Shown: piece by piece, positions 1 through 15,754 of the stretch
How positions within the stretch are numbered: position 1 is the first letter of the stretch
How the letters are laid out: every line of letters begins with the position of its first letter
Virus record (IMG/VR): IMGVR_UViG_3300045988_040537
Span: 1 to 15,754 of that record
DNA from: a virus
Direction: 5' to 3' (one strand)
DNA: 15,754 bases
Position numbers and translations under genes: made by a program
The notes under the pieces: generated by a model
The model's database searches: none
The model's input: only the letters and a program-made list of their open reading frames with translations
Told to the model about the DNA's origin: nothing

Positions 1-32
1 GGTATCCGTATGCATTTTTTCGGTACTCCAGT
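1..32. repeat. Left inverted terminal repeat (32 bp)
   Basis: ggtatccgtatgcattttttcggtactccagt is the exact reverse complement of 15723-15754. Identity stops at position 33 (c versus the a at 15722). Confidence 0.95.
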
Positions 33-100
33 CCCCCATGATCGGGTGCTCGCTAACAGCACAGCTAATGGTACGAGGCTGGGCATTAGCACACGCTATA

Positions 101-149
101 GAAAAAATTCAAAAAAGGGCTTGCATTTTCCGGCAACCTGTGCTATACT
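101..149 (+). promoter_or_regulatory. Left-end early promoter with A-tract UP-like element
   Basis: -35 TTGCAT (121-126), a 17-nt spacer, then extended -10 TGcTATACT (141-149). A-tracts gaaaaaattcaaaaaa lie at 101-116. The predicted transcription start is near 155-156. Confidence 0.65.
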
Positions 150-154
150 AAGAC

Positions 155-558
155 CATGGAAGAGGTGAGTCGCAAGACCCGGGCGGCGATCCTCTCCATG
201 ACAGCCCGAACCGCGCGCGGGATTCACGTATGCGCGGACAGCCTGACAGCCTGACGCGAGAGCGTCAGACAGCCCGCCGCCGTGGCTGGTGGTGTGGTCG
301 TCGCCGCCGTGTATCTTGAAAACTGCATACAGGCCATGACAGCCCGGAACACGCGCAAACACGCCACGACGTGCAGAGCAGTAAAGCGCAGAGCGTGAAC
401 GTGTTTCCGGTGGGCAATCCTTAATGTTGTTTGGTAAATTGCCCGGCGGTATTCAACCCGCCTAAACATAGGGACAAAAATGTGGGATAGCCCTATGGGA
501 TGAAAAGTCTTTGAAAATTAAGACGAAACGCGCCCACGGCACGCCGCCACGCGCGGCG
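155..558 (+). ncRNA. GC-rich untranslated leader, candidate structured RNA (function unknown)
   Basis: No plus-strand ORF of 60 aa or more and no RBS. The region is visibly more GC-rich than the rest of the genome. A 5'-terminal stem pairs 155-165 with 191-200 (10 bp, one bulged A). A perfect 7-bp hairpin with a GAGA loop lies at 251-268. GACAGCC occurs five times. It lies directly downstream of the 121-149 promoter. Confidence 0.3.
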
Positions 559-594
559 CGTCGGCAAACACCAAATTTAACAACAAAAGGAGAA
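542..594 (+). repeat. Intergenic module copy 1: GC hairpin + CGTCGGCAAA + A-rich tract + RBS
   Basis: The hairpin pairs cgccgc (542-547) with gcggcg (553-558), followed immediately by cgtcggcaaacaccaaatttaacaacaaaaggagaa. Positions 555-594 match 933-972 at 38 of 40 positions. Confidence 0.85.
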
Positions 595-599
595 CTATT

Positions 600-926
600 A
601 TGAACACGAAAACCGCGATCCAGATTCTAGCTAATGAAAAGGTCAACACAATCCTAAATGAGCGAGACAACGCGCCATATAGCAAAACCGTAGCGCACCA
701 GACGCTGAACCGCCTAAATAGCTGTCAGGCATGGACATATGAAGATGGCTATTTTATCGTCCTTATCTCTTATAATACAGAAGTGGCGCGCATAGACACG
801 CGAACACGCATTTGCTATGATTATCTGCGTAAAGTCTACGGCTACACGGCAACCAGCGCACAGCACATTAGCAAATTCATGAAAAAGTTTGGGGTGATTA
901 AGAAAGTGACATACCGCCCGGTTTAA
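600..926 (+). CDS. Hypothetical early protein (108 aa)
   Basis: ATG lies 8 nt after AAAGGAG of module copy 1. It is the first ORF after the left-end promoter. I recognise no motif with confidence. Confidence 0.75.
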   Translation: MNTKTAIQILANEKVNTILNERDNAPYSKTVAHQTLNRLNSCQAWTYEDGYFIVLISYNTEVARIDTRTRICYDYLRKVYGYTATSAQHISKFMKKFGVIKKVTYRPV

Positions 927-972
927 TCGGGCGGCGCGTCGGCAAATACCAAAATTAACAACAAAAGGAGAA
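914..972 (+). repeat. Intergenic module copy 2
   Basis: The hairpin pairs ccgcccg (914-920) with cgggcgg (928-934). The TAA stop of the upstream ORF (924-926) sits in the loop. The sequence cgcgtcggcaaataccaaaattaacaacaaaaggagaa follows. Confidence 0.85.
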
Positions 973-978
973 AGAATT

Positions 979-1292: not shown

Positions 1293-1332
1293 TCCCTCGC
1301 GTCGGCAAATCCAAATAAACAACGAAAAGGAG
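1281..1332 (+). repeat. Intergenic module copy 3
   Basis: The hairpin pairs cgaggga (1281-1287) with tccctcg (1293-1299). The TAA stop (1290-1292) sits in the loop. The sequence cgtcggcaaatccaaataaacaacgaaaaggag follows. Confidence 0.8.
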
Positions 1333-1339: not shown

Positions 1340-1630
1340 ATGATCGACTTTGAAAAGGTATTTGCAGTTAGCGCAGATATCCAGCCCTATTGTGTAACTC
1401 TGCGCCCCGAAAATCTGGAACGTACCTACGGAGTATTCCTTGCCAGAATGGCAACCACGTTTGACGTTTCCGACGCACTCGCGGCAGAACTTGACTGGAT
1501 TGACAATGAATACAATGGCATCGTAACGCAGACTTTCGGGCGCTATCAGTTAGCACTTTCTCGCGAAAACTGGCTGTCCGTTGCCGTAGTAACGTCTTAT
1601 CGTTATTACAACGGAGGTAGACGCTCATGA
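1340..1630 (+). CDS. Hypothetical early protein (96 aa)
   Basis: ATG lies 7 nt after AAAAGGAG of module copy 3. An ATGA overlap links it to the next ORF. Confidence 0.75.
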   Translation: MIDFEKVFAVSADIQPYCVTLRPENLERTYGVFLARMATTFDVSDALAAELDWIDNEYNGIVTQTFGRYQLALSRENWLSVAVVTSYRYYNGGRRS

Positions 1631-1863
1631 TTAGTGTTATCAACAAAAAATACACTCGGGACGAGGTATCACGCCTAATTGACGCATTTGACCGACTAAA
1701 TGCAGAGTGCTGTGAAGTGTTCGATGGTGTTTGTGACACATGCGAATACAAAACTCTTTGTTGCGACATTCAGAGAACCGAGCAGTTCCTGCTGGACCGG
1801 CTAAATGCAGGATTTTACGGCGATAAAAAGCGCGTCCATCGGTCAAAATTACGCGATAGTTAA
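1627..1863 (+). CDS. Cys-rich small early protein (78 aa), possible metal-binding
   Basis: GGAGG RBS lies upstream and the start is translationally coupled (ATGA). The cluster CCEVFDGVCDTCEYKTLCC holds 7 Cys within 19 residues. Confidence 0.7.
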   Translation: MISVINKKYTRDEVSRLIDAFDRLNAECCEVFDGVCDTCEYKTLCCDIQRTEQFLLDRLNAGFYGDKKRVHRSKLRDS

Positions 1864-2052: not shown

Positions 2053-2358
2053 ATGAGAAAGCCCATGATTACCCGCACCATCCAGACCACCCGCGCAACC
2101 GTGATGTTTATCGACACCACCAACCCCACCCCGTACACCGACGACATTGTGCTCCCGCGCACCTACAAGAACGACGACGCCATGTTGAAGCTGGTAAAGC
2201 AGATGTGTGAGACGTCCACGATCAAGGCCGTGGCTATCATGTCCAGCACGGTTGAGAGCGCGCTTTACGGCATGAGCGAGAGCGACTTTGTCGCCCACGC
2301 GCACATCATCGAGAAGCCCAGCAAGGCCGATATCGACAACGACACCGAGAACAACTAA
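2053..2358 (+). CDS. Putative phi29 p6-like dsDNA-binding (histone-like) protein (101 aa)
   Basis: Size and position match phi29: 101 aa versus 104 aa for p6, directly upstream of an SSB-like gene and the TP-pol pair. As I recall p6, its N-terminal ITKTTVNV and C-terminal VYELPVEKFLEVA resemble ITRTIQTTRATV and ALYGMSESDFVAHA here. The tail is acidic. Codon usage is GC3-rich, as in the capsid gene, which suggests high expression. Confidence 0.55.
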   Translation: MRKPMITRTIQTTRATVMFIDTTNPTPYTDDIVLPRTYKNDDAMLKLVKQMCETSTIKAVAIMSSTVESALYGMSESDFVAHAHIIEKPSKADIDNDTENN

Positions 2359-2373: not shown

Positions 2374-2751
2374 ATGGAAGGCTACAAGGCAAATATCACT
2401 TTCGCAAGCAAGGAACTGACGGGCAAAGAGAAGGTCATGCTTAAAGACCTCACAAACGCCGTCTCTCTCGACGACGCTACCGACGGCAATGCACCTCTTG
2501 TCGTCGACCTCGACTATTACGCACTCATTCACATCCACAACGAACGTAGTGAAAACAAGGAATACGACGTGTGTGTCATCGTGGACAAGGCCGGAACAAA
2601 GTATCGCACGGGTTCCGAGAGCTTCCGCACCTCGCTCGAGGAAATCGTGGAGGATATGGCCGACACTGGTGAGGAGTGGAGTCTCAGCGTCTACCGCATG
2701 CCCAGTAAGAACTACAAGGGCAAGAGTTTCATCACCTGCTCTGTCGTGTAA
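2374..2751 (+). CDS. Putative phi29 p5-like single-stranded DNA-binding protein (125 aa)
   Basis: 125 aa versus 124 aa for phi29 p5, at the same syntenic position. The C-terminal pattern VIVDKAGTKYRTGSESF...LSVYRMPSKNYKGKSFITCSV parallels my recollection of p5 TIFAADGSLYSAISKTV...VKVVQGTSSKGNVFFSLQL. AAAGGAGG RBS. Confidence 0.5.
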   Translation: MEGYKANITFASKELTGKEKVMLKDLTNAVSLDDATDGNAPLVVDLDYYALIHIHNERSENKEYDVCVIVDKAGTKYRTGSESFRTSLEEIVEDMADTGEEWSLSVYRMPSKNYKGKSFITCSVV

Positions 2752-2757: not shown

Positions 2758-2808
2758 AGCAAGAGGGCTTCCGGTTATGCGTCTTTTCCGGAAGCCCTCT
2801 TGCTTTCT
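2758..2808 (+). terminator. Intrinsic terminator or attenuator (17-bp perfect stem, weak T-tract)
   Basis: agcaagagggcttccgg (2758-2774) pairs perfectly with ccggaagccctcttgct (2788-2804) around a 13-nt loop. Only ttct follows. Confidence 0.7.
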
Positions 2809-2821: not shown

Positions 2822-3535
2822 ATGGCTAATGACTATTCTGCGGAATACGCTAAAGAAATAAAGCGAATAAAGAGCTTTACTTCTAAAGCAACTAAGAGGG
2901 GCTACAGATTCCCTGAAAATGTGGTTCCCGCAACGCCGAAAAGGGTAACTAAGAAATCACTAGAAAGAGTTCGCGCAATCACGCCACAAACACTATATCA
3001 AAAAGCAACATATTATGACCCGTTGACGGACGCTCTGTTTCCGGGCGAAGTAGGCCGCACCATTGAACGATCAAGAGCCGCGAAGAAGGCGGCAAAGACT
3101 AAATACGAAAAACACATAAAGACTACGGTTTCAGAACCCGGACAGCCACCTAACGACGTCGACACGGTGTTGCGATGGGTTGAAGATGAACTTGCTAAAT
3201 GGAACATCGAGGATTTAGGACTACCATCGTGGGCGCATTGGAAGCGCAGGACTATAACCTACGACAAGAACACCTTGCAAAGTGTACTTGATGGCGCAAT
3301 AGCCAGAGACGGCAGACGCGCAGTCGCACAAAGGTTACAAGCCCACGCCACACAGATAAACGATAACGTGACGGATATCCTATATAACATATCAGAACGA
3401 GCGAATGTAGCAAGTGAGCTTGTTTGGTTCGGGACAGTGATAAAGGGAGAAGCCTTAACCGAGCTAGAGCGTATGCGGATATCCGTTGCGGAAGTTGAAT
3501 TTGGTTGGGAAGATAATGAGGACGAGGTCTGGTAA
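2822..3535 (+). CDS. Candidate terminal protein (replication primer), 237 aa
   Basis: It lies immediately upstream of the protein-primed PolB and overlaps it, as phi29 gene 3 does with gene 2. The size is similar (237 versus 266 aa). The N-terminal half is basic and the C-terminus acidic. The genome has ITRs. I did not recognise any direct sequence motif. Confidence 0.6.
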   Translation: MANDYSAEYAKEIKRIKSFTSKATKRGYRFPENVVPATPKRVTKKSLERVRAITPQTLYQKATYYDPLTDALFPGEVGRTIERSRAAKKAAKTKYEKHIKTTVSEPGQPPNDVDTVLRWVEDELAKWNIEDLGLPSWAHWKRRTITYDKNTLQSVLDGAIARDGRRAVAQRLQAHATQINDNVTDILYNISERANVASELVWFGTVIKGEALTELERMRISVAEVEFGWEDNEDEVW

Positions 3536-5474
3536 AGTTTTGGTAGCCGACTTTGAAACAACCGTATACGAGGGGCAGGTCAATACAGAAGTTTGGGCGG
3601 CGGCGTGTGTTGAACTGTTCACAGAAGATGTGAAGATTTTTCACTCGATCGGTGAACTGTTCGACTACTTTGCCAGCCTAGAAAGCAACATCGTTTGCTA
3701 CTTCCACAACTTGAAGTTCGACGGTTCTTTCTGGCTAAGCTATCTCATGGATGTGCTCGGCTGGTCGCAAGCAATGGTTGTGCATGGCGAGGACGACATT
3801 GAATTTCTCAAGCCTAGGGAAATGCCAAACAACACATTTAGTTACAGCATATCTTCGATGGGGCAATGGTACAGAATACTTATTAAATACCGCAACAAGA
3901 TAATCGAATTGCGTGACAGCCTTAAACTACTACCATTCACAGTTGAAAAGATCGGTAAGAGCTTCAAGACAAAGCACAAGAAACTAGACATGGAGTACAC
4001 TGGTTTTCGCTTTGCTGGCTGCGAAATAACAGAGGACGAGAAAAAGTACATCGCCAACGACGTGCTTGTGGTCAAGGAAGCTGTTGAAATCATGTTTCAG
4101 GAAGGGCACAAGAAATTGACAATAGGGTCTTGCTGTTTGGCTGAGTATAGGCAGATTCTCGGCAACAAGAGATTCAACGAGCTTTTTCCTGATGTATATG
4201 AAATTCAGCTTGACGATTCATTTGGAAGTCCAAACGTTGGTAAATACATCAACCAGTCTTACCGGGGAGGATGGTGCTATTTAGCACGAGGAAAAGAACA
4301 GCAACTCAAGCATAATGGCACAACAGCAGATGTTAATTCACTGTACCCATCCATGATGTCGTCAGAATCCGGTAACACTTATCCCGTGGGAATCCCGACC
4401 TTTTGGCGAGGAGACTACATTCCAGAAGAAGCAAATGCTTACGACAAGTTTTATTTCGTTCGGTTCAAAACACGCTTTTATTTGCGCCCCGGAAAATTAC
4501 CTTTTATTCAGATAAAAAACACCCTTTCTTATCGTGCCAACGAAATGCTTGAATCCTCCGACCGCTATAACCCAGCAGATGGCAAGTATTACAAGGAGTA
4601 TTATGACGTAAACGGCGATTTACAGGAAGCAAGAGTTGTAATGACCATGACGCAGACCGACTTCAAGCTATTCAAGGAGCACTATGAACTGGTTGACTTT
4701 GAGATTCTGGATGGCTGTTACTTTGAAGCTAGAATAGGGATTTTTGACGAGTACATTGAGAAGTACAAGAAGATTAAGCTAGAGAGCACAGGAGCTAGGA
4801 GAGAGCTTGCTAAACTGTTCTTGAACAACCTGTACGGGAAAATGGCAAGTAGTCCTGTCAGCAACTTCAAGATAGCCTATCTAAAAGAGAACGGCGTAGT
4901 CGGCTTCAACACCATTCTAGCCAATGATAAGAAACCGGGCTACATCCCCGTCGGCTCTGCCATCACCAGTTACGCTAGATGCTTCACCATCCGCGCGGCA
5001 CAAGCGAACTATCAGGGCTCAGATAAACCCGGCTTCATCTACGCAGACACTGATTCAATACACTGTGACCTACCAGCAGACCAAATCAAGGGCATTAAAG
5101 TTCACGATAAGAATTTCTGTTGCTGGAAGCTAGAAAGTTCATGGGACGATGCTTACTTTGTGCGTCAGAAAACATACATTGAACATGTCACGCATGAGAA
5201 TCTTGAACCAGTAGACAAGCCTTATTACAGCGTTAAGTGCGCAGGAATGCCCCAGCACTGTAAAGACCTGTTCGTCATGAGTATGACAGGTGACTACGAC
5301 ACAGAACTAACAGAGGAAGAACAAGATTTTCTTTACTACGACAAAGAACACACGCAAAAGCACATTAGAACATTACAAGATTTTGATATAGGTCTATGTG
5401 TTCCCGGAAAACTTCGCCCTAAAACGATCAAAGGCGGCGTTCTGCTGGTGAACAGCATGTACCAAATGAGGTGA
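3516..5474 (+). CDS. Protein-primed family-B DNA polymerase
   Basis: Exonuclease motifs: ExoI VADFETT, ExoII FHNLKFDGSF, ExoIII YIANDVLV. Polymerase motifs: A DVNSLYPS, B KLFLNNLYGK, C YADTDS, and KxY QKTY. I prefer the ATG at 3516 to the TTG at 3486 used by the ORF track. The 20-nt overlap with the TP gene implies coupling. Confidence 0.95.
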   Translation: MRTRSGKVLVADFETTVYEGQVNTEVWAAACVELFTEDVKIFHSIGELFDYFASLESNIVCYFHNLKFDGSFWLSYLMDVLGWSQAMVVHGEDDIEFLKPREMPNNTFSYSISSMGQWYRILIKYRNKIIELRDSLKLLPFTVEKIGKSFKTKHKKLDMEYTGFRFAGCEITEDEKKYIANDVLVVKEAVEIMFQEGHKKLTIGSCCLAEYRQILGNKRFNELFPDVYEIQLDDSFGSPNVGKYINQSYRGGWCYLARGKEQQLKHNGTTADVNSLYPSMMSSESGNTYPVGIPTFWRGDYIPEEANAYDKFYFVRFKTRFYLRPGKLPFIQIKNTLSYRANEMLESSDRYNPADGKYYKEYYDVNGDLQEARVVMTMTQTDFKLFKEHYELVDFEILDGCYFEARIGIFDEYIEKYKKIKLESTGARRELAKLFLNNLYGKMASSPVSNFKIAYLKENGVVGFNTILANDKKPGYIPVGSAITSYARCFTIRAAQANYQGSDKPGFIYADTDSIHCDLPADQIKGIKVHDKNFCCWKLESSWDDAYFVRQKTYIEHVTHENLEPVDKPYYSVKCAGMPQHCKDLFVMSMTGDYDTELTEEEQDFLYYDKEHTQKHIRTLQDFDIGLCVPGKLRPKTIKGGVLLVNSMYQMR

Positions 5475-5477: not shown

Positions 5478-5771
5478 ATGATTTACATTTTCAACGAGTT
5501 CAGCGGTCAGCCTATGCGCTTCAATATGACCGTGTTAGCGCCTGACAATCCATATCAAGTAGTGGACATTTATGTGCGGTCAGACCTACGCAACACCGAC
5601 CTTAAAATGTCGGAATTCAGGCCGTGCCATGAATGGAAAGAGGTTCGCTCGATTCTTGAGCACTTTGGTTTTGCCAAAGAGCGCGATCAATTTCTTTACT
5701 TCCGCGATGGCAAGATTATTCCAGCTCTTTCCAGCGTGGGTTACGACGGGCTTTTCACAGTAACAGTCTAA
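5478..5771 (+). CDS. Hypothetical protein (97 aa), positional analogue of phi29 gene 1
   Basis: ATG lies 4 nt after the polymerase stop, with a GAGGTG RBS. No motif recognised. Confidence 0.65.
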   Translation: MIYIFNEFSGQPMRFNMTVLAPDNPYQVVDIYVRSDLRNTDLKMSEFRPCHEWKEVRSILEHFGFAKERDQFLYFRDGKIIPALSSVGYDGLFTVTV

Positions 5772-5774: not shown

Positions 5775-5809
5775 AAAATCCCCTGTAGAATCATCTACAG
5801 GGGATTTTT
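5775..5809. terminator. Bidirectional intrinsic terminator between convergent genes
   Basis: aaaatcccctgtaga (5775-5789) pairs with tctacaggggatttt (5794-5808) around a 4-nt loop. An A-tract on one side and a T-tract on the other give a U-tail on either strand. Confidence 0.85.
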
Positions 5810-5922
5810 CATATCTGTAACTCTTGCAACCACAAAGCGGTTGACTTCCGATATTCTGTGCGGGCAGTTTGTTTCACCTGTGTCACCCCGTCAGACCAGT
5901 GCAGTATACAAGAGCAGATACC

Positions 5923-6957
5923 TTAATAAGAGAGTGCTTTGAGTACAGCTTCTTTACAACGGAGGTCTTTAAAGCGGAAACACCCATGCTCAAAATAGTA
6001 TCTCATGTTAGCAATAAAGAAGTCGTTCTTCTTGAGCATAACATAGTTCACGTCATGGTCGTCAGTTGTAACTGTAATGCGCACTCTGAATGTTCTGTCT
6101 GGTGTTGTATCACAGTATACAATTCCGCGCTCAGGGTATTCCCTGATTCCAAACTCCGTGTTTTTATACTTTAGTGTCGCAATGTATCTACTTTCGCCAG
6201 CAGGTTTCTCGATGAACGCCTGACTGTCATTCAGGTACACGCACTCACTCGAATATGCAACATAGCTATTGCGTGCAAAGGCTCTATTAAACCCACTTTC
6301 TTTCTGTGCCTTACTTGCACTATCGACAAACCCCTGTTCAAGCACAAAGCCGTCACCCCGGAGGAAGCGCGTGGAATCGTTAAGTCTTTCGCTTATACCC
6401 ATTTCCACATAGTAGGGATTGATTATCGACACAGGGTTGGCGCACATATAGACAGGCACATAACGCACCTGTTCGCCGTGACCTCTGGCAATACTGGTAT
6501 GCACAGACAGTAGCTTTCTAATTTCATCCTGACAGTAGTGATTAGTCTCACTCTGAAATTCATCGAAGAACATCCGTTGCACATCACTGAACAGGTGACT
6601 ATACTTTTTAAGCTGGTCTGCGCTGTTCAGGGAAATAGCATATCCGCAACTATCATCATCCAAATATAACTCATGGAAGATGCCAGAAGCGCGCCGTCTG
6701 CTTGTCATTACAGAACCTGCAAAGAACAGCCCAGCAATGTCCTTAAAGAATTTGTCTGCGCAATCATCCAGTTCATAGTTATACCTGTAAACAAGGCAGA
6801 ACTTTTCTCCACGATCTTTGAATCTGTTCACAAGCATACGGGAGAAGTACACAGTCTTACCGCCTGTGCGGTTAGTAGTACACATATAAATTTCCGGCTT
6901 CTTGCCATTCAGGTCTTTCATGCTGAGTAACTTTGTGCCATCATAATATTTTCCCAT
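5923..6957 (-). CDS. DNA encapsidation (packaging) ATPase, phi29 gp16-like
   Basis: Walker A is NRTGGKT and Walker B is MFFDEF. CANPVSIINPYYVEMGI parallels phi29 gp16 CLSNAVSVVNPYFLFFNL, and the C-terminal GCFRFKDLRCKEAVLKAL parallels GYLRFDNQVIRNIAYELF. AAAGGGAG RBS. Confidence 0.9.
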   Translation of the reverse strand: MGKYYDGTKLLSMKDLNGKKPEIYMCTTNRTGGKTVYFSRMLVNRFKDRGEKFCLVYRYNYELDDCADKFFKDIAGLFFAGSVMTSRRRASGIFHELYLDDDSCGYAISLNSADQLKKYSHLFSDVQRMFFDEFQSETNHYCQDEIRKLLSVHTSIARGHGEQVRYVPVYMCANPVSIINPYYVEMGISERLNDSTRFLRGDGFVLEQGFVDSASKAQKESGFNRAFARNSYVAYSSECVYLNDSQAFIEKPAGESRYIATLKYKNTEFGIREYPERGIVYCDTTPDRTFRVRITVTTDDHDVNYVMLKKNDFFIANMRYYFEHGCFRFKDLRCKEAVLKALSY

Positions 6958-6989: not shown

Positions 6990-7018
6990 ATTATAACATA
7001 TTGCTTGACAAAAATCAA
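6990..7018 (-). promoter_or_regulatory. Leftward promoter for the packaging ATPase
   Basis: Read on the minus strand: -35 TTGATT (7018-7013), a 17-nt spacer, extended -10 TGtTATAAT (6998-6990). Confidence 0.6.
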
Positions 7019-7033
7019 CCCCTATGATATAAT
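7005..7033 (+). promoter_or_regulatory. Rightward promoter for the lysis/structural operon
   Basis: TTGACA (7005-7010), a 17-nt spacer, extended -10 TGaTATAAT (7025-7033). Confidence 0.75.
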
Positions 7034-7082
7034 TTATAGTAGGTTAAAGACCTGAAAATTAAAAATGAAACGGAGTGGTCGC

Positions 7083-7541
7083 ATGAAGATGGACGTATTC
7101 AAAGCCGCAGTCGCCGCCGCAATTGGAGCGCTTGTTGCTTATGGGGTACAGCTTTTCATCCCCTGTATCGTGCTTGTTGTAGTCATGCTGTTGGACTACA
7201 TCACCGGCATGGTGAAGGCGTGGGAAGCTGGCGAACTGAGTAGCAAGATCGGTATCAAAGGCATTCTCAAGAAGTTGGGCTACCTTGTTATCGTATCTGT
7301 AGCGTGTGTGGTGGACTGGTGTGTGCGCTATGGCGCGGAAAGTGTTGGTATGGATTGGAAGTTTGAATTTCTGTTTGCTTCCATCGTGCTTCTCTGGCTG
7401 GTTATTAATGAACTTATTTCAATCCTCGAAAACGTCTCAGCCATTGGCGCGCCCGTCCCTGCTTTCCTGACAACAATTATTAACAAACTCAAGACCAGTA
7501 CTGAGAACAAGGTAGGTGACAACGAAGATGAAAATCATTGA
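7083..7541 (+). CDS. Holin (Phage_holin_4_1 / toxin-secretion holin type)
   Basis: Several hydrophobic helices. The signature LDYITGMVKAW...SSKIGIKGILKKLGYLVIV is typical of holin family 4_1. GGAG lies 7 nt before the ATG at 7083. The ATG at 7065 is possible but has no RBS. Confidence 0.85.
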   Translation: MKMDVFKAAVAAAIGALVAYGVQLFIPCIVLVVVMLLDYITGMVKAWEAGELSSKIGIKGILKKLGYLVIVSVACVVDWCVRYGAESVGMDWKFEFLFASIVLLWLVINELISILENVSAIGAPVPAFLTTIINKLKTSTENKVGDNEDENH

Positions 7542-8224: not shown

Positions 8225-8599
8225 GTGAAGCCGTGGCGTAGAATTGTGGGAACTAAAAATGGCTTTATTGTTTTGCCCAAAGAATGTACGGAGTTTGTGC
8301 TGAATCTGCCCGTGATTTACAGCGTGCAAATTCGGAGTGGCTCTATTATTCCTTCCAAAATTTTAGATGATGTTGGAATCACAACCGAAACCGAAGAAAC
8401 AAAATCGATTCAAGGGTTTAAGCGTGGTTCTTTTTGGGATTTGGTGGTCGCAACAATCTCAGCAGGCGAACCGGGCAAGGTAAACTTGTGTGGTAAACCA
8501 GGGCCAATTTTAACAGATGCTGAAAATTTTCTAGCGGTTAGCGTTAGGACAGTTGGCGGCGTTCCCACAGACGGCGTTCTAACTGGCATGTGGAGGTAA
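8225..8599 (+). CDS. Hypothetical protein (124 aa), GTG start
   Basis: It is the only ORF filling the gap between the endolysin and the tail lysozyme. GAGGG lies 7 nt upstream of the GTG. There is no internal ATG alternative and I recognise no motif. Confidence 0.55.
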   Translation: MKPWRRIVGTKNGFIVLPKECTEFVLNLPVIYSVQIRSGSIIPSKILDDVGITTETEETKSIQGFKRGSFWDLVVATISAGEPGKVNLCGKPGPILTDAENFLAVSVRTVGGVPTDGVLTGMWR

Positions 8600-8602: not shown

Positions 8603-9208
8603 ATGGCGTGGATTCACACTAACGCAAGCCTTAACTTAGAGCAGATGCAAAACAACGCTGTTGAGTTTCTGTCTTATTTCACAACTTCGGCTACAATTTC
8701 AGACGCAACCTATAATGCCGTGGCTGGAATGCTTGGAGTGCTACAGAGTGAATCCACAATCAACCCCGGCAGATGGGAGGGTGGCGTTGAGTATGGTCAA
8801 CCACCGTCTAATTATGGTTATGGTCTTGCACAATGGACACCGTGGACTAAAGTGTCTGACTACTACGGTTCTACCGACTTGGACAACATGCCGGACTGGG
8901 TACAGTGCGAATTGATCTATGTCGGATTAACTACAGGTAGCCAATGGTTTGCAAATGATTTTGCCAGACCTGTCAACCCGCCAATAACCGGAGTGGAGTT
9001 CTTGCACAGCGACTTACCACCATCCACGCTTGCAAAATATTTCTTATGGTATTTCGAGCACCCCAGTGAATCTGTACTTCCTACGCGTGAAGCGCAGGAT
9101 AGCGCGAATGCTGAATACTGGTACAAATACCTTACCGGAGTAGACCCGCCTAAACCGCATAAGCCGAGAAAATCAATGCCCATATGGTTCTATCTTAGAC
9201 CGTGGTAA
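8603..9208 (+). CDS. Virion/tail-associated lysozyme (phage tail lysozyme family, like the phi29 gp13 N-domain)
   Basis: AGMLGVLQSESTINPGRWE...GYGLAQWTPW matches the characteristic GN.q.ES..nP...GyGl.QWt signature of phage tail lysozymes. GGAGG RBS. Confidence 0.7.
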   Translation: MAWIHTNASLNLEQMQNNAVEFLSYFTTSATISDATYNAVAGMLGVLQSESTINPGRWEGGVEYGQPPSNYGYGLAQWTPWTKVSDYYGSTDLDNMPDWVQCELIYVGLTTGSQWFANDFARPVNPPITGVEFLHSDLPPSTLAKYFLWYFEHPSESVLPTREAQDSANAEYWYKYLTGVDPPKPHKPRKSMPIWFYLRPW

Positions 9209-9219: not shown

Positions 9220-9495
9220 ATGGCAAAGAAAACAAAGGATGAACTTCTTGCTTCTGCCAAAGCCATTCTTGGCGACAACACATCCGATGAAGCGCTTACT
9301 TTTATGGAGGACATTTCAGATTCCCTTGAGGTAAACACTGAGGATTGGGAAGCAAAGTACAGAGAAAACGACGCCGCTTGGCGCAAACGCTATGCTGAGC
9401 GCTTCATGTCTAGTGGGGACGATTCAGACTTTGAGCCTGAACCCGATGACGAGCCGAAGCGCCTGACATATGAAGAACTTTTTAAGGAGGAATAA
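9220..9495 (+). CDS. Head scaffolding protein (phi29 gp7-like)
   Basis: 91 aa, highly charged, acidic and probably helical. It lies immediately upstream of the major capsid gene, as phi29 gene 7 does. AAGGAGG lies 6-7 nt before the ATG at 9220. The track's GTG at 9202 lies inside the RBS. Confidence 0.7.
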   Translation: MAKKTKDELLASAKAILGDNTSDEALTFMEDISDSLEVNTEDWEAKYRENDAAWRKRYAERFMSSGDDSDFEPEPDDEPKRLTYEELFKEE

Positions 9496-9498: not shown

Positions 9499-10941
9499 AT
9501 GCCCAGACGCGTATCTGTAAGCACCCTGAACGCTTCCACTATGGACATTCTGAATACCATTCGCCAGAACGCTGGCTATGAGTATCAGAGCCTTGTCCCG
9601 GAGGTTACTAAGGAAACCGACATTCCGCGTGTCGGTGAGGTTCTGGTTGGCTATCCCTCTCTAGCTAACCAGTTCATCAACGCCCTTATCAACCGCATCG
9701 CTCTTGTGAGGGTTAAGAGCGCAACCTTTAATAACGCCTATGCTATGCTCAAGAAGGGTTATCTTGAGATGGGCGAAGTCGTCGAAGAGGTTTTCGTCAA
9801 TATCTGCAAAGCGCGTGAGTTTTCCGTCGAGAAGGCCGCGGGTAGAGAGCTGAAACGTAGCGTACCGGATGTTCGTTCCGCTTTCCACGCTATGAACTGG
9901 CGCGTCCAGTACCCCGTGACTATTCAGGAGCAGGATCTCCAGCAGGCTTTTCTGAGCATGAGTGGCGTACAGGATCTTATCGCCCGCATTGTGGATGCTG
10001 TGTATACTGCCGCAGAGTACGACGAGTTTCTGCTTTTCAAGTACCTGATTATCAAGGCTTACAACGCCAATAAGATTTTCAAGGTGCATATCACGGGCAC
10101 GACGGCGGCTATTAAAAATGATGCCGCTATCTATCGCGGCTATTCCAATGGGCTGACGTTCATGAGTGACAAGTACAACGCTTCCGGAGTGACCACCATC
10201 ACGAAGAAAGAAGATCAGTACCTCTTCATGGACACGCAGTACAATGCGCAGTATGACGTGGAAGTGCTTGCTTCTGCGTTCAACATGGGCAAGGCCGACT
10301 ATCAGGGTAGACTGACGCTGATTGATTCTTTCAGCGAGTTCGACAATGATCGTTTCTCCGAGATCGTCGCTAACTCTGACATGCTCGACCCTGTCACTCC
10401 GGCTGAGCTGACTGCCATGCAGAACGTCAAGGCGATTCTGTTTGACAGCGAGTGGTTCCAGGTTTATGACAACCTGACTAAGTTCACGGAGACGTATGTT
10501 GCTTCCGGTATGTACTGGAACTACTTCCTGAACATGTGGAAAACCGTGTCCTATTCCCCGTTCTCGAACGCTATCGCGTTCACTACCGAAGCTGTTGATG
10601 CCGCGCCCGATTCTATCACTATCCCGGTCGTTTCCGTGGACAAGAGTGATACCTCTACCGTGGTTACATTTGGTAATGCTGAGAGTGACAACAAGGCTGT
10701 CGGTGTTCGTTTCGTCCAGACCCAGCAGATGGTTGAGGACGCGACGGCTGTTCACCCGTATGGCGCTATCATCTATCAGGCGAACGCCAACGCGGCGCTT
10801 GTTCAGGTGGCGTACAAGCAGGCTGACGGAAGCGAGAAACTGTATGTCAGTCAGAATAGCGGCGGGACTGCCGCCGCGACGTTTGACTACACGACCGCGA
10901 AGCCCGGCGACAGTGTCACCTTTAAGCCTGTTGCTGGATAA
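9499..10941 (+). CDS. Major capsid protein (phi29 gp8-like) with C-terminal extra domain
   Basis: Blocks parallel my recollection of phi29 gp8. [19 protein letters not shown] matches [45 protein letters not shown] matches [37 protein letters not shown]...[25 protein letters not shown] matches WFMVYDNLHKM...[25 protein letters not shown]. Confidence 0.92.
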   Translation: [480 protein letters not shown]

Positions 10942-11004: not shown

Positions 11005-12687
11005 ATGTATATCGCACCTAATACAAATATCAGAATCCTGAAAGACGTTCCGCTGGAACCGAGCTACGAGAACACGCTGTACTTCTCTAGCCTTAGCGCA
11101 CAGACCAACTACTTTAGCAGTAAGGCCAAATATAGCCTAACGCAAAATACTTATCAGCGAGTAAACCGTGGGGTTATCCGAGTTGGGGTTAAGGCTGACA
11201 ACCTGTATGACTGCAACTATGTCATGTTCCAGAATGCCGGGTATGGCAATAAGTGGTTTTATGCGTTCATTCTTCAAGTGGAGTTTGTCAATAACACTAC
11301 TGCCGATATCTATTTCGGAATTGATGTTATGCAGACGTATGCATTTGACTACACGCTAAAGGAATGCATGATCGAGAGACAGCATGCCGAATCCGATGAA
11401 ATCGGAGAGAACCTTGTACCAGAGGGTTTGGAGACAGGTGAGTATGTCAGTGAGAATATAACTAATATTGAAAGTCTAAAACCCAACTCAATTGTAATAG
11501 GCGTAGCCGCTACCGAGAACGCCGGTGATTTTTACGGCGGCTATTTTAACGGAACATATTCCGGGATTAACTACTTGGCTTATCCCAACACACTGGTGGG
11601 TGCAAAGCTTTGTCAGAACAAACTTGAACTTCTGACACAATCGGTTAATAATAAGGCAGATAGTATTGTTAGTCTGTTCCTTATGCCAACAGAGATGGTC
11701 GGTACGGATGGCTCGGAACTGACTGTTAAACGGTTCTTACTTGGCGGTGACAACCCTAAGAGCTTCAATGGATATAAGCCGAGAAATAATAAGCTATTCA
11801 CTGAGCCTTACAGTTTCTTAGCCGTGTCTACCAGAACTGGTAACAGCGCAACGTATGGGTGGGAATTTTTCAATCGAGGTAGCGCTGAGGATGACTACGT
11901 TTTCTACTACTTCGGCGACACTACCCCAAACCCTAGCGTGTGGCTTACTCCGCTGAACTATAAGGGGCTTGCAGTAAACGACGATGAAGCGTGTGTTATG
12001 ACTGGCTTCCCGCAGGTAGCGTATACAATTGATACCTATCGCGCTTGGGTGGCACAATCCAGCGGTGTTGTCGCGATGAACGCTATGACTGCTGGTTATG
12101 GGGCATATGCTAAAACCAATGCCGTTGCCGAAAATGCCGCCGCCGCACACATGACCGCAACAATCAAGGCACAGCAAGCCAGTGCCAATTTTGCCAAAAC
12201 TCTTAGCGCCGCTAACGCCGCAAAGGCCACGGCGACGAGAGCCGCCGCCACAGAAGCTGGAACTGCCTCTGCCGCCGCCGCCGCCGCTGTCGGGCCAGCC
12301 GCTATCGGTGCTGTCGCCCTTAGTGTGCTTGGCGCTGTTATCGAACATGCGCGTATGCCTACAGTTGCGAAGGGAATCCAAAGTTCTATGGTGTGGGCTG
12401 GTAGAAAAGCTATGACTTTCTACTTTGACCATAGACATATCACTCGCCAGTTTGCTGAAATTATCGATAGCTATTTCGACATGTACGGTTACGCCCAACA
12501 CAAGGTTGGCGTACCCAACAGAAATGTCAGAAGACATTGGACATATGTTAAAACTGTCGGGTGCGCGGTAGTTGGCTCGATGCCTGCGGATGATATGCGC
12601 AAGATTCAGGAAATTTTTGATGCTGGCATTAGATTCTGGAACACCCCCGGCGAAGTGGGCAATTACTCGCTGGATAATACTCTGTGA
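11005..12687 (+). CDS. Tail knob / distal tail tube protein (phi29 gp9-like)
   Basis: YVMFQNAGYGNKWFYAFILQVEF matches phi29 gp9 YIMFQNADYGNKWFYAFVTELEF. IFDAGIRFWNTPGEVGNYSLDN matches IFDNGITLWHTDNIGNYSVEN. GGGAGGA RBS lies 5 nt before the ATG at 11005. Confidence 0.92.
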   Translation: MYIAPNTNIRILKDVPLEPSYENTLYFSSLSAQTNYFSSKAKYSLTQNTYQRVNRGVIRVGVKADNLYDCNYVMFQNAGYGNKWFYAFILQVEFVNNTTADIYFGIDVMQTYAFDYTLKECMIERQHAESDEIGENLVPEGLETGEYVSENITNIESLKPNSIVIGVAATENAGDFYGGYFNGTYSGINYLAYPNTLVGAKLCQNKLELLTQSVNNKADSIVSLFLMPTEMVGTDGSELTVKRFLLGGDNPKSFNGYKPRNNKLFTEPYSFLAVSTRTGNSATYGWEFFNRGSAEDDYVFYYFGDTTPNPSVWLTPLNYKGLAVNDDEACVMTGFPQVAYTIDTYRAWVAQSSGVVAMNAMTAGYGAYAKTNAVAENAAAAHMTATIKAQQASANFAKTLSAANAAKATATRAAATEAGTASAAAAAAVGPAAIGAVALSVLGAVIEHARMPTVAKGIQSSMVWAGRKAMTFYFDHRHITRQFAEIIDSYFDMYGYAQHKVGVPNRNVRRHWTYVKTVGCAVVGSMPADDMRKIQEIFDAGIRFWNTPGEVGNYSLDNTL

Positions 12688-12702: not shown

Positions 12703-13581
12703 ATGAGCAGAAAAAACAAGCAGTTTTGGGAATCGGTTGTAATGAACAACGCGACTTGGGCACAGTACGCTAGGCGGCTTACGGAACTTAGCATTTCGAT
12801 GTTTGAATGGAAGAACCTGCCTGATAGCGTTGACCCTAGGTTTCTGGAACTTACCCTTTTCGGAGACGGGCAGGCTGTGTTCTTTAGGGATGAAGTTATG
12901 GGCTACCTTGCTTTGCAATGCGCCGCAAACGGTAACTTCAACCAGTACAGAATTCCAACAAGAAGAAGAGCATATGCTGTTAATGGCTATCAGAAGGATT
13001 TAGATATGAACGATAGTGTGATTATCTATAACAACTATCTAAGAACCAACAGTTGGCTCGATGTGCAGATGTTCGCGAAAAGACTGTATAATCTTGACCG
13101 CGCTATCGACGTTAATGCCAATGCGCAGAAAACCCCTATCCTGCTACTTTGTGACGAGAACCAGAGGTTGACCGTTGAGAACGTGTACATGCAGTATGAC
13201 GGTAATATGCCGGTGATTTTTGGTGATCGTGGCCTTAATACTGGCATGGAAATGAAAACCTTGAATACTCAAGCACCGTTTGTGTGTGATAAGCTGTATG
13301 AACTTAAAACGCAGTTGTGGAACGAAGCCCTGACGTATTTGGGAATTAGTTCTGTGAACAGTGTAAAGAAGGAAAGGCTTATCACCGACGAGGTTACACG
13401 GAACCTTGGCGCAACTGTTGCAAGTAGGTATAGCAGACTGCAAGCAAGGAAAGAAGCCTGTCAACAGATCAATAGAATGTTTGGTCTGAATCTCGACTGC
13501 GAGTATCGTAGTGATATCAGGTATATCGAGGACGAAGATCAAGCGCCTGCCAGCGATGAGGAGGTTGATACTAATGAGTAA
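12703..13581 (+). CDS. Portal / upper collar (connector) protein (phi29 gp10-like)
   Basis: MFEWKNLPDSVDPRFLE matches gp10 LFEWENLPPTINPSFLE. VNANAQKTPILL matches VNQNAQKTPVLI. KKERLITDEV matches KKERMVTDEV. REEACQQINRMFGLN matches REEACEKINELYGLN. The tail is acidic. Confidence 0.92.
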   Translation: MSRKNKQFWESVVMNNATWAQYARRLTELSISMFEWKNLPDSVDPRFLELTLFGDGQAVFFRDEVMGYLALQCAANGNFNQYRIPTRRRAYAVNGYQKDLDMNDSVIIYNNYLRTNSWLDVQMFAKRLYNLDRAIDVNANAQKTPILLLCDENQRLTVENVYMQYDGNMPVIFGDRGLNTGMEMKTLNTQAPFVCDKLYELKTQLWNEALTYLGISSVNSVKKERLITDEVTRNLGATVASRYSRLQARKEACQQINRMFGLNLDCEYRSDIRYIEDEDQAPASDEEVDTNE

Positions 13582-14236
13582 TTACACAACTGAATTGCGC
13601 TGGTGGTGCGAACAGGTGACTGAAATGGCCGGGGAATCGCCCAGTAAAGTCATTCCAAAAGCCGCACCGATGCTGTTTGATTTTAGTTACCCATTTTGGT
13701 CAAACAATCTCAACGACAAAACAGCATTTCAAATTAAGATTGTTCGACATTTCTACACCAGAGAAATAGGGGCTGAAACAATGGGGCTTTTTAGGCTTAG
13801 GCTTGAAGATAAAATGAATGAAATCATGCCCTATTTTAATAAGCTATATAGCGCCGCCTACAAGGAGTTCAATTTCCTTAACACAGACGAGGCAAACGAG
13901 AAAGAAAATTCAAGTGCAAACAACAAGAATAGCTATACTAGCACAAGCGCACAAACAGGAAAGAGCATCGACAAATTCTCCGACACTCCGCAGGGCGCTA
14001 TCACTGATTTGGAAAGCGGGGCATATTTGACCAATGCGACAATCTCAGAGAATGAATCAAATGGAAGTAATAACGGCGGGAACACCGGAGAAGCAACGAG
14101 CGAAACAACAAGAACATATACAGGAAGAAAAGGGGCTTCTGGTGGGCGGCTTTTAAGCGACTACTACGAAGCACAGAAAAACATAGACAGAATGCTGTTT
14201 GATGAACTGAACGTGCTGTTTATGAATATTTGGTAA
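13574..14236 (+). CDS. Lower collar protein (phi29 gp11-like)
   Basis: It follows the portal gene directly (ATGAGTAA overlap, GAGGAGG RBS). HFYTREIGAETMGLFRLRLEDKMNEIMPYFNKLY fits the ..Y.REIG.ET...F...L...MNEIMP.YN.LY pattern I associate with picovirus lower-collar proteins. Confidence 0.7.
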   Translation: MSNYTTELRWWCEQVTEMAGESPSKVIPKAAPMLFDFSYPFWSNNLNDKTAFQIKIVRHFYTREIGAETMGLFRLRLEDKMNEIMPYFNKLYSAAYKEFNFLNTDEANEKENSSANNKNSYTSTSAQTGKSIDKFSDTPQGAITDLESGAYLTNATISENESNGSNNGGNTGEATSETTRTYTGRKGASGGRLLSDYYEAQKNIDRMLFDELNVLFMNIW

Positions 14237-14246
14237 GGAGGTTCAT

Positions 14247-14879
14247 ATGGCAGATAACCTTGAAAAATTCAACTGGCCTTTTCGCTGCTACCCCGTCCTG
14301 CCCCTTGTGTATGACGAGAGTTTATCGTATTATGAGTGCATTGGAAAAATGCGCGAAAAGGTCAATGAGCTGGTAGCCTATGTCCAGAATCTTGAGGGCA
14401 TTTCAAATGCCTACACAGACCAGCAAATTGGTGCTTTGCGTGATTATCTGGAGACTGAGCTTAGCACAGCCATTGCGGAAGTTAGCGCTGATTTGTCAGG
14501 TCTTGAAGCGAAGATGAACGCAGAAGATAATCGCCTGCAAGAAGAAATCAACAATTTGGCGGCTGAAATTAATGCCGTTATTGCCAGCCTTGACGCCAGC
14601 ATTGAAGTTAAACTTCGCGAGTACGATAACTACATCAAAGACTACATCGCCAGTCAGCTTATTGATGTGAAGGTTATCAATTACTTCACTGGTGAAGCTG
14701 TTACGATTCAGGCGATGTTCGATTATCTGGCGGCTCTTCACATTGACAATGGCCTTACTTATGACGAAATTGCCGCGCGTGGTTACAACTACAACCAGCT
14801 CGCTCAGCTTGCCACAAGCAATGGCGGCACATATCAGGCTCTTAACAGAAACGCGGCTACAATCTGGCCTGCACAGTAA
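14247..14879 (+). CDS. Tail fibre/appendage protein with central coiled coil
   Basis: The N-terminal PLVYDESLSYYECIGKMREKVNELV resembles the virion-attachment motif common at the N-termini of Firmicutes phage fibre proteins. A long heptad-like helical segment follows (LETELSTAIAEVSADLSGLEAKMNAEDNRLQEEINNLAAEINAVIASL). Confidence 0.6.
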   Translation: MADNLEKFNWPFRCYPVLPLVYDESLSYYECIGKMREKVNELVAYVQNLEGISNAYTDQQIGALRDYLETELSTAIAEVSADLSGLEAKMNAEDNRLQEEINNLAAEINAVIASLDASIEVKLREYDNYIKDYIASQLIDVKVINYFTGEAVTIQAMFDYLAALHIDNGLTYDEIAARGYNYNQLAQLATSNGGTYQALNRNAATIWPAQ

Positions 14880-14894
14880 AAGGAGGAATAAATT

Positions 14895-15665
14895 ATGCCC
14901 GGTGCAACTAATCACTTTAAACTTCCCATCGCTCTCGGTTCTGACCTCTACAACCATCTTACAATCGACAATGCGGCATATGAGAAGATCGACGATCAGA
15001 TGTTCAAAAATCAGAACGCGGCTTTCTCTACAGCTACGCACACTAAGAGTGGCAATACTCACGTCATTGTGAGAAACATTCCTACTTGCGCTGTTTTCTG
15101 GTTCACGGCCACCGACGATTATCGTACTGGTGAACCGATCACGGTGAACGGCAACAGCGTAAGTGCGCGTCTCCCGACTGGTGCTGGTCTGCCCGACTAT
15201 TGTTGGAGAATCAACAGCAAGGTAATTTGCATTGTTGAGGGTAGCGCCATGACGGTGTTCAGCACTGTCTCTTCTTCTGACGCGGCGGCAAGCGCATACC
15301 CCGTGGGTAGTGTTTTTATCAGCACTGTTGCAACTTCGCCTGCTACGCTTCTTGGGTTCGGCACATGGGAGCGCATTCAGGGGCGTTTCCTGTTCGCGTC
15401 TGACAGTACACATGCGGCTGGCACAACTGGTGGCGAAGAGAAGCACACTCTTACGGTGGCTGAGCTTCCTGCGCATAACCATCAGAGTGGTAGTCAGGGT
15501 GGCTACTACCTGTATGGCGGGGATGGAACGTCTGATGGCCCCGCCGCTGGTCAGGGCTACCGCACCGCGATTACGAGTCAGAGAACCGGTAATACTGGTT
15601 CAGATACTGCGCATAACAATATGCCGCCTTATCTGAGTGTGTATATGTGGAAGAGAACAGCATAA
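14895..15665 (+). CDS. Tail fibre / receptor-binding protein with C-terminal baseplate-type domain
   Basis: YPVGSVFIS...LLGFGTWERIQGRFLFASD...GGEEKHTLTVAELPAHNHQ...HNNMPPYLSVYMWKRTA is the conserved C-terminal module annotated in many phages as phage baseplate or tail fibre protein. It is the last gene of the late operon. Confidence 0.7.
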   Translation: MPGATNHFKLPIALGSDLYNHLTIDNAAYEKIDDQMFKNQNAAFSTATHTKSGNTHVIVRNIPTCAVFWFTATDDYRTGEPITVNGNSVSARLPTGAGLPDYCWRINSKVICIVEGSAMTVFSTVSSSDAAASAYPVGSVFISTVATSPATLLGFGTWERIQGRFLFASDSTHAAGTTGGEEKHTLTVAELPAHNHQSGSQGGYYLYGGDGTSDGPAAGQGYRTAITSQRTGNTGSDTAHNNMPPYLSVYMWKRTA

Positions 15666-15674
15666 ATTTGGTGT

Positions 15675-15714
15675 GGCTGGCGTGTGCCTTGCGGTGCGCG
15701 CCAGCCGTCTTTTT
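15675..15714 (+). terminator. Intrinsic terminator of the late operon
   Basis: ggctggcg (15675-15682) pairs with cgccagcc (15699-15706), followed by gtcttttt. Confidence 0.8.
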
Positions 15715-15722
15715 GCGCTTCA

Positions 15723-15754
15723 ACTGGAGTACCGAAAAAATGCATACGGATACC
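15723..15754. repeat. Right inverted terminal repeat (32 bp)
   Basis: actggagtaccgaaaaaatgcatacggatacc is the exact reverse complement of 1-32. Confidence 0.95.

Follow-up and report, generated by a model that had tools for sequence, protein, structure and literature searches.

Prohead RNA (pRNA) is described in reviews of 2016, 2024 and 2025 only for phi29 and related Bacillus phages (PMC5066667, PMC11476376, PMC12670572), and we found no report in the literature of a pRNA for clostridial or gut phages. In phi29, a bulge and a loop of neighbouring RNAs pair with each other and close a ring on the prohead (PMC12670572). The phi29-like phages as a whole are numerous: the 2024 review counts more than 2000 entries, with the Clostridium phage CS229P1 as representative of cluster 06 (PMC11476376). 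Here we analyze a viral sequence of 15,754 nt (15.75 kb; IMG/VR record IMGVR_UViG_3300045988_040537, positions 1–15,754), the whole of which is referred to below as the window. Taken jointly, the evidence makes it likely that the window is the complete or near-complete linear genome of a virulent phi29-type podophage, probably with a gut Clostridia host, and that it encodes a pRNA-like RNA. This RNA, conserved, pRNA-shaped and located beside the packaging ATPase gene, is the feature worth following.

The core of the known pRNA family (Rfam RF00044) measures about 112–118 nt. A paired 5'/3' A helix with a bulge leads into a three-way junction, followed by a C helix, a 5'-strand bulge and the E and D hairpins. 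The sequence of the bulge is complementary to that of the D loop, and the two covary among phages; a dispensable-looking 3' hairpin follows the core. The phi29 packaging ATPase gp16 needs the pRNA, and the basic N-terminal tail of the phi29 connector gp10 binds it. The pRNA gene of phi29 is located at the left end of the genome, distant from gene 16.

Phi29 (Salasmaviridae, Picovirinae) shares with the window a family B DNA polymerase (PolB), a single-stranded DNA-binding protein (SSB), a p6-like protein, the gp16 ATPase, the major capsid protein (MCP), gp9, gp10, gp11, a gp13-type lysozyme, a holin and inverted terminal repeats (ITRs). The PolB and ATPase genes are on opposite strands in both genomes. 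However, in phi29 the late genes lie on the ATPase strand, the ATPase gene closes the late operon and the lysis genes follow the tail genes, whereas in the window the lysis genes come first. Protein identities are 28–37%, and the phi29 ITR is 6 bp, compared to 32 bp here. The window also lacks the gp8.5 head fibre, the gp12 appendage, the right-end early operon and the parS sites of phi29. The closest cultured relatives are the Clostridium phages CS229P1, CS229P2 and CS229P3 (GenBank OP172772-4; host Clostridium_Q symbiosum), unclassified Caudoviricetes with genomes of 16.2–16.5 kb. Like the window, they carry small early genes and genes for a p6-like protein, an SSB-like protein, a terminal protein candidate and PolB in forward orientation, an inverted ATPase gene, and forward late genes. 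All protein genes of the window are on the plus strand, except that of the ATPase. The first-pass annotation, made from the sequence alone, had placed the replication module in the same orientation as the late genes, with only the ATPase inverted and the lysis genes at the head of the late block. These orientations are confirmed, with the holin and endolysin genes opening the late block. The annotation had also regarded this architecture as unlike that of phi29, which is correct, but the same plan is found in CS229P1–3 and throughout the related IMG/VR clade.

The pRNA-like RNA was identified by comparing intergenic regions among relatives with nhmmer. Its elements are listed below, with RNA base i corresponding to window coordinate 5923 − i.

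5811–5922, minus strand: pRNA-like structured RNA, 112 nt, starting at the base after the ATPase stop codon
RNA bases 2–7 with 107–112: helix P1
RNA bases 9–14 with 97–102: helix P1b
RNA bases 18–22 with 90–94: helix P2
RNA bases 29–36 with 59–67: C helix
RNA bases 37–42 (window 5886–5881): CE bulge, GUGACA
RNA bases 43–58: E hairpin, a short stem with a conserved 10-nt loop
RNA bases 73–85: D hairpin, with the loop AAGUCAA at window 5847–5841

Nucleotide-level conservation of the 151 bases that separate the early block from the 3' end of the ATPase gene extends to many distant relatives, in which coding DNA is only about 65% identical. In every relative, (G)GUAUC marks the start of the element shortly after the ATPase stop codon, GAUAU marks its end about 112–117 nt further on, and a terminator follows. 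RNAalifold, applied to a structure-blind MAFFT alignment of 27 diverse copies, detected compensatory changes in 18 of 24 pairs. A covariance model built from this alignment was searched against 84 source sequences and found exactly one match in each of 82 (46–120 bits). Without exception, these matches lie on the strand of the ATPase gene, at most a few tens of bases past its stop codon. The model found no match in phi29.

Covariation backs every helix, that is, the A helix, the arms of the three-way junction, the C/E arm and the D hairpin. For the full structure in 69 distinct sequences, 90.1% of cells pair, compared to 29–44% when the partners are slid by 1–3 columns; the covariation score is 0.557 versus 0.160 in shuffles, with changes on both sides in 30 of 36 pairs. 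The CE bulge and the D loop are complementary in the window (UGAC with GUCA) and vary together across the clade. Most members have AGC/GCU, while other variants are ACGC/GCGU, UGCA/UGCA, CUGUA/UACAG (CS229P2), AAGUA/UACUU and UAACA/UGUUA; the 36 distinct combinations each form 3–5 Watson-Crick pairs. For this pairing alone, 82.6% of cells pair versus 22–43% when slid, and the covariation score is 0.329 versus at most 0.082. Since the C helix and the bulge/loop pairing lay outside the model that made the alignment, their covariation provides independent tests. The frequent G-U pairs indicate that the RNA is encoded on the minus strand.

The RNA thus agrees with RF00044 in the length of the core, in the order of all elements from the A helix to the D hairpin and in the covarying bulge/D-loop complementarity, and the counterpart of the 3' hairpin in the window is the terminator. 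Differences are also evident. With 6 nt (RUAGCA in most members), the bulge is shorter than the nine unpaired positions between C and E in the RF00044 consensus line; the E stem is only 3 bp, with its conserved 10-nt loop; the bulge of the A helix is on the 3' strand; and the RNA gene lies immediately next to the ATPase gene, on its strand, unlike in phi29. RF00044 gave no match to the window element (211 nt) even at E≤10, with the phi29 pRNA as a positive control at 145 bits, and an Rfam scan of the whole window gave no match at E≤1. Models R1 and R2 found no match to the phi29 pRNA or in HM2, CI55P1, MT835904 or MT836152. The connector N-termini are basic across the clade (MSRKNK in the window, MAKRK... 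in others), as in phi29 gp10 (MARKRSN).

Look-alike elements were noticed in more distant phages. In Clostridium phage HM2 (L084), one lies at 6085–6185 downstream of the ATPase gene, with the bulge GUAGUC and the D loop GACUAC; in CI55P1 (L088), another lies at 4748–4897 upstream of the ATPase gene, with UACCA/UGGUA and a fold z-score of −0.5. Both have a bulge/loop complementarity of 5–6 bp and are based on single-sequence folds and inspection. Separately, MT835854 (L085) has a 39.7-bit match at 10288–10420 with a 23-nt insertion in the D arm. The search for a promoter directly upstream of the RNA gave only TATTAA, formed by the Tyr and stop codons and too close for a 5' end at base 1, and this candidate was rejected. 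Processing of the ATPase transcript may release the RNA.

If the 112-nt RNA is the prohead or packaging RNA of the clade, as its conserved architecture suggests, the ATPase would be held by its paired 5'/3' end, and the basic N-termini of the connector would carry the bulge and the hairpin arms. Through the complementarity of the CE bulge and the D loop (UGAC/GUCA), adjacent RNAs would then be joined in a ring like that of phi29.

The evidence that the window represents a whole genome begins with its ends.

1–32, plus strand: left ITR, GGTATCCGTATGCATTTTTTCGGTACTCCAGT, an exact 32/32 match with the right end
15,723–15,754, minus strand: right ITR, the exact reverse complement of 1–32

Direct comparison bears out the earlier claim that the first and last 32 nt form an exact inverted repeat ending at both window edges: the match is 100% complementary, extends to the edges and breaks off at base 33. 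The chance probability of a 32-nt match at fixed positions is about 4^-32, and the next-best inverted repeat in the window is 27 nt at 78%. The first 24 nt of the ITR have no match in IMG/VR, JGI metagenome contigs or GTDB genomes, and the full 32-mer has none in IMG/VR; therefore, the repeat does not look like an adapter or a recurrent artefact, a concern that the first-pass annotation had raised. Linear genomes with ITRs are a hallmark of phi29-like phages, and here an exact 32-bp ITR is found at both edges. The 5' end begins with GG, so that the 3' end of the template is CC. Such an end is compatible with the mechanism of phi29, in which synthesis is initiated at the second base and then slides back, and would allow it here. 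The window is likely complete, or complete to within its outermost bases, and we consider it fairly probable that its edges are true or near-true termini. As a side observation, window positions 1–7 (GGTATCC) match the first six bases of the pRNA-like RNA (GGUAUCU; 5916–5922, minus strand), which may be chance; the RNAs of some relatives begin with GGUAUCC, while the genome ends of CS229P2 differ.

The genes for replication follow the phi29 order 6-5-(4)-3-2, with a p6-like protein, SSB, a terminal protein candidate and PolB.

2053–2358, plus strand: p6-like dsDNA-binding protein (weak assignment; phrog_6370, E=1.5e-4, full length)
2374–2751, plus strand: phi29 p5-type SSB (PF17427 Phi29_Phage_SSB, 26.3 bits, cut-off 25, residues 9–123)
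2822–3535, plus strand: candidate terminal protein, 237 aa, from its position directly upstream of PolB, which it overlaps
3516–5474, plus strand: protein-primed family B DNA polymerase (PolB), 652 aa (phrog_1907, E=1.9e-131; PF03175)

The assignment of PolB to the protein-priming type, made in the first-pass annotation, is well supported. All exonuclease and polymerase motifs are found (D12-x-E, N65LKFD, Y178IAND, D272VNSLYP, K433LFLNNLYG, Y509ADTDS and K552TY), and the protein aligns with the phi29 DNA polymerase (PDB 1XHX) over chain residues 10–538 (E=3e-76). Insertions TPR1 and TPR2 mark protein-primed polymerases; in the published phi29 numbering they span about 261–358 and 398–420, both inside the aligned range. 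The p6-like protein is 38% identical to its syntenic counterpart in CS229P2.

The 237-aa protein is proposed as the terminal protein from its position. The general shape also fits: its size, its place after the SSB gene, a basic N-terminal half and an acidic C-terminus. It is homologous to the CS229P2 protein at the same place (29% identity), and a serine is found at or beside the position of S191 (window numbering) in 14 of 14 aligned homologues. In the AlphaFold2 model (predicted local distance difference test score, pLDDT, 79), which is all-helical except for one hairpin, S191 is predicted to sit in a loop that joins two of the helices in the C-terminal bundle. The priming residue of phi29 p3, Ser232, likewise lies in a loop, which the position of S191 recalls. 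On the other hand, the candidate has no sequence match in Pfam, PHROG or PDB, and its profile (14 homologues) aligned to phi29 p3 with a probability of 1% in hhalign. A Foldseek search of the model against PDB and BFVD returned only uncharacterised podovirus homologues, and the sole named fold match, the terminal protein of Actinomyces phage Av-1, is non-significant (E=1.8). Position and general shape are the basis for retaining it as a candidate terminal protein, as proposed earlier; the family and p3 profile searches lend no support. In a phi29-like mechanism, PolB would use the second C of the 3'-CC end as template to link dGMP to this protein, Ser191 perhaps being the acceptor, and would then slide back by one base; strand-displacement replication would proceed from both ITRs.

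The packaging, lysis and virion genes are as follows.

5923–6957, minus strand: gp16-type DNA packaging ATPase, 344 aa (phrog_2150, E=1.9e-52; PF05894)
7065–7541, plus strand: holin (PF05105, phrog_199)
7516–8220, plus strand: endolysin with Amidase_2 and PG_binding_1 domains
8225–8599, plus strand: 124-aa open reading frame (ORF), no assigned function, no family match
8603–9208, plus strand: gp13-type tail-associated lysozyme (PF18013; 34% identity to phi29 gp13)
9220–9495, plus strand: putative scaffolding protein, small and acidic, from its position upstream of the MCP gene, with a ribosome-binding site and ATG at 9220
9499–10,941, plus strand: phi29-type MCP (PF25622, E=5e-90)
11,005–12,687, plus strand: tail knob, gp9 (phrog_2248, PF16838 and PF20934; start revised)
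12,703–13,581, plus strand: connector or upper collar, gp10 (PF05352)
13,574–14,236, plus strand: lower collar, gp11 (phrog_3225/5472)
14,247–15,665, plus strand: two tail-fibre genes, 14,247–14,879 and 14,895–15,665

The claim of a whole phi29-type morphogenesis set holds, with the MCP, tail knob, connector, lower collar and ATPase all recovered by family searches. The hallmark set of phi29-like phages (p2, p8, p9, p10, p11 and p16; PMC11476376) is present, above curated cut-offs where one exists. Together with the ITRs, these genes bear out the reading of the window as the ITR-bounded genome of a phi29-type protein-primed podophage.

To place the window among known phages, the whole sequence was compared to GenBank phages by megablast, which found no match. 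The picture changes with comparisons at the protein level. A tblastn search with PolB found records from human faeces and CS229P1–3 at 60–63% identity, with phi29 at 34%. In IMG/VR, a related PolB is encoded in at least 130 stretches, mainly on contigs of 15–17 kb; these scans reveal a large clade of the same layout. The closest relative, IMGVR_UViG_3300045988_050570 (L003), has a PolB 97% identical and a genome similarity of 84.3%; IMGVR_UViG_3300045988_081643 (L004) has values of 88% and 78.1%. Genome similarity is 14.5% to CS229P2 and 1.5% to phi29. With the usual thresholds of 95% for species and 70% for genus, these values place the window as a new species in an uncultured genus. This genus lies in a populous, already sampled clade whose cultured members are CS229P1–3; the collinear gene order, the inverted ATPase gene and the conserved RNA following it are all present. 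Since the clade has already been sampled and has the same architecture and size, the window is not a new lineage. The distinct lineage proposed earlier is therefore tenable with respect to phi29, from which the window is far removed (PolB 34%, genome 1.5%), but not with respect to this large clade, with a relative at 84%. The description of the genome as very small, at the small end of tailed phages, was overstated: 15.75 kb is ordinary for the clade, and phi29-like genomes go down to 11.7 kb (Astrid) and 12.3 kb (AD70P2) (PMC11476376). As for a placement in Salasmaviridae, the similarity to the phi29 genome is 1.5% and protein identities are 28–37%, and the nearest cultured phages are unclassified below Caudoviricetes.

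CS229P2 is collinear with the window for all compared proteins, with identities of 69% for the ATPase (28% between the window and phi29 gp16), 60% for PolB, 57% for the connector, 43% for the MCP and 29% for the terminal protein candidate. The same pRNA-like RNA follows its ATPase gene (83.9 bits; loops CUGUA/UACAG). L003 and L004 are collinear with more than 90% of the window and hardly differ from it in the pRNA-like region (89.9 bits for each of the three genomes). L003 is without the first 216 and last 93 bases of the window, and so has no ITR. The leftmost 200–300 bases of L004 are unrelated to the window, which suggests that the left ends of close relatives have been swapped out. Positions 40–195 of L004 contain two tandem units of about 60 nt with a consensus TTGACA-17-TATAAT promoter, where the window sequence is unrelated. 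Relatives of the endolysin (41–55% identity) and PolB-bearing contigs were found in metagenome-assembled genomes (MAGs) of gut Clostridia, and the host is probably a gut Clostridia bacterium.

An alternative concerns the function of the RNA. The 112-nt element could be a 3' untranslated region (3'-UTR) or other cis element of the ATPase mRNA, acting in stability, processing or regulation, or an unrelated small RNA, with the bulge/loop pairing forming an intramolecular pseudoknot. It begins right after the ATPase stop codon and has no clear promoter of its own, RF00044 does not match it, and sequence data are blind to whether the pairing is intra- or intermolecular. Against such a role, the size, the order of helices, the bulge on the 5' side between C and E, the three-way junction and the covarying bulge/D-loop pair match the pRNA plan, the element travels with an ATPase of the gp16 type, whose phi29 counterpart needs pRNA, and the look-alike upstream of the ATPase gene in CI55P1 argues against a 3'-UTR function. 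We regard a function other than pRNA as rather unlikely, and lean towards a working prohead RNA of the clade, of which the HM2 and CI55P1 elements would be further versions.

A similar question arises for the ends, where the contig might combine the unique part of a somewhat larger genome with no more than the inner 32 bases of a longer ITR, so that its edges would not be physical termini. A de Bruijn assembler collapses an ITR longer than k, and the unique segment retains exactly k−1 or k bases of the repeat at each end; a repeat stopping exactly at both edges is the expected outcome of such a collapse, and 32 equals 33−1. The ITR of HM2 is about 170 nt, and in MT835904 (L086) and MT836152 (L087), two related GenBank metagenome records, the terminal inverted repeats alike measure exactly 124 nt, a figure that resembles a k-mer length. 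However, a k of 33 is unusual as the final k in common assemblers, the 24-nt probe turned up no contig bearing the outer part of an ITR, about 23 relatives examined as whole contigs have no terminal inverted repeat, which is unexpected if long ITRs were the rule in the clade, and the cultured CS229P2 has only an imperfect repeat of about 18 nt at its ends. A longer ITR is accordingly the less probable reading. Far less probable still is an artefactual origin of the 32-bp repeat, whether from an adapter, a chimera or some other assembly error, in a molecule that is really circular, circularly permuted or a fragment of a concatemer. Nothing specific speaks for this beyond the general concern for metagenomic contigs, whereas the ITR probes are absent from the collections searched, circular or permuted genomes yield direct rather than inverted repeats, and a protein-primed PolB predicts ITRs. 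In addition, the genes form an orderly series that starts with early genes at the left end and finishes with a fibre gene and a terminator at the right, as in the linear cultured CS229P2. A linear plasmid or phage-plasmid, in place of a strictly lytic phage, is equally improbable. Some phi29-like entries do carry partition and toxin-antitoxin genes (PMC11476376), but family and profile searches gave no match to an integrase, repressor, ParA/ParB or toxin-antitoxin in any ORF of the window, no parS site was found in it even allowing 3 mismatches, and a full set of lysis and virion genes is present.

Several observations weigh against the joint interpretation. None of the relatives examined as whole contigs has a terminal repeat with which that of the window, at its presumed physical ends, could be compared. 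The terminal protein candidate resembles phi29 p3 neither in sequence nor in profile or fold. There is no convincing promoter directly upstream of the RNA. RF00044 and the covariance models built here gave no match in either direction, so that the resemblance of the RNA to pRNA is one of architecture rather than of demonstrated homology. Finally, the evidence for the host (endolysin identity of 41–55% and MAG binning) is weak and does not narrow it beyond gut Clostridia.

If the RNA is a working pRNA, the motor RNA ring would not be peculiar to the Bacillus relatives of phi29 but would be widespread, and perhaps ancestral, in phi29-like phages, and the pRNA gene would be ancestrally linked to gene 16. 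An RNA supported by covariation and tied to the ATPase gene in 82 genomes, including the cultured CS229P1–3, with a look-alike in HM2, can be tested at the bench, and the dozens of natural loop-pair variants could serve studies of motor assembly and RNA nanotechnology. The genome itself is one more species in a well-represented clade of gut phages with cultured members and changes little alone. The equal repeats of MT835904 and MT836152, which look mutually unrelated, suggest a k-mer effect of the assembler on longer ITRs and are a caution for completeness calls based on ITRs.

A parS palindrome that follows the ATPase gene in CS229P2 has no counterpart in the window. The 16-mer TGTTTCACGTGRAACA, whose reverse complement corresponds to the Bacillus parS consensus, directly follows the ATPase stop codon in CS229P2. 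It is found in many clostridial relatives, namely L001 (5780–5795), L013, L051, L062, L065, L067–L069, L071, L072, L084–L086 and L088; phi29 (L083) has four sites. The parS sites of phi29 help to trap its genome in spores (PMC2731898).

The window has a GC content of 47.5%, compared to 37% in CS229P2. It contains 22 credible genes covering 91% of the sequence, and a tRNA search of the window found none. The signals for transcription are listed below.

2758–2804, plus strand: hairpin between the SSB gene and the terminal protein candidate gene, a perfect 17-bp stem with a 13-nt loop, then TTTCT
5775–5808, acting on both strands: bidirectional intrinsic terminator formed by a perfect stem of 15 bp, with a T run on each strand
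6990–7033, both strands: back-to-back promoters, TTGACA-17-TATAAT on plus and TTGATT-17-TATAAT on minus
15,673–15,708, plus strand: late-block intrinsic terminator, a 16-bp stem then a T run, 14 bases before the right ITR

The plus-strand promoter of the pair (7005–7033), which matches the consensus at 12 of 12 positions with an upstream TG, is ahead of the holin gene, while the divergent minus-strand promoter (7018–6990) faces the ATPase gene. A further perfect sigma-70 consensus promoter with an upstream TG is located at 1875–1903, ahead of the replication genes, with the p6-like gene downstream. The terminator at 5775–5808 closes both the early block and the minus-strand unit of the ATPase and RNA. 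Together, these promoters and terminators fit three transcription units. The hairpin at 2758–2804 is possibly an attenuator or terminator limiting transcription into the terminal protein and polymerase genes. The promoter at 1875–1903 falls inside an 83-aa ORF (1805–2056), which is probably not a gene since it has no family match and overlaps its neighbour.

The late blocks of the window and CS229P2 differ at both ends. The late block of the window starts with the holin, the amidase endolysin and the extra ORF; in their place, CS229P2 carries a pair of small ORFs and a gp13-like protein of greater length. The putative scaffolding protein is 37% identical to its syntenic counterpart in CS229P2, and the MCP carries an extra C-terminal region (residues ~363–480). 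The fibre is encoded by two genes in the window and by a single 945-aa protein in CS229P2. The product of 14,247–14,879 is a coiled coil similar to the N-terminal part of the CS229P2 fibre, while that of 14,895–15,665 terminates with the type of domain seen at the C-terminus of the T4 baseplate protein Gp10 (PF21939, E=1e-23). CS229P2 is without a counterpart of this domain, which points to a swap of receptor-binding modules.

The remaining features belong to the early block.

33–599, no strand assigned: left non-coding region without a credible ORF
600–926, 979–1155, 1152–1292, 1340–1630 and 1627–1863, plus strand: five small early ORFs, no assigned function
5478–5771, plus strand: 97-aa ORF, the last of the early block, no family match

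The left non-coding region is partly conserved in L003 and L004. By analogy with phi29, these 600 nt had been a candidate location for a pRNA, which was dropped as the region is conserved only in these two nearest relatives. It contains a promoter-like TTGCAT-17-TATACT at 121–150 and five copies of GACAGCC at 200–344, within 145 bases (nine in the whole window versus 1.6 expected). A 23-nt direct repeat is present at 196–218 and 334–356. An early regulator or the p6-like protein could bind at the GACAGCC copies and the direct repeat. Among the five small early ORFs, the only annotation is a weak match of 600–926 to a family without known function. The first three are separated by repeated units of a hairpin plus GCGTCGGCAAA...AAAGGAG (repeat families D1, D2 and D4). 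A repeated unit of about 45 nt, a hairpin followed by GCGTCGGCAAAYACCAAA...AACAACAAAAGGAG, lies ahead of three early ORFs at 550–594, 928–972 and 1298–1315, and such units may be boundary or translation-initiation cassettes.

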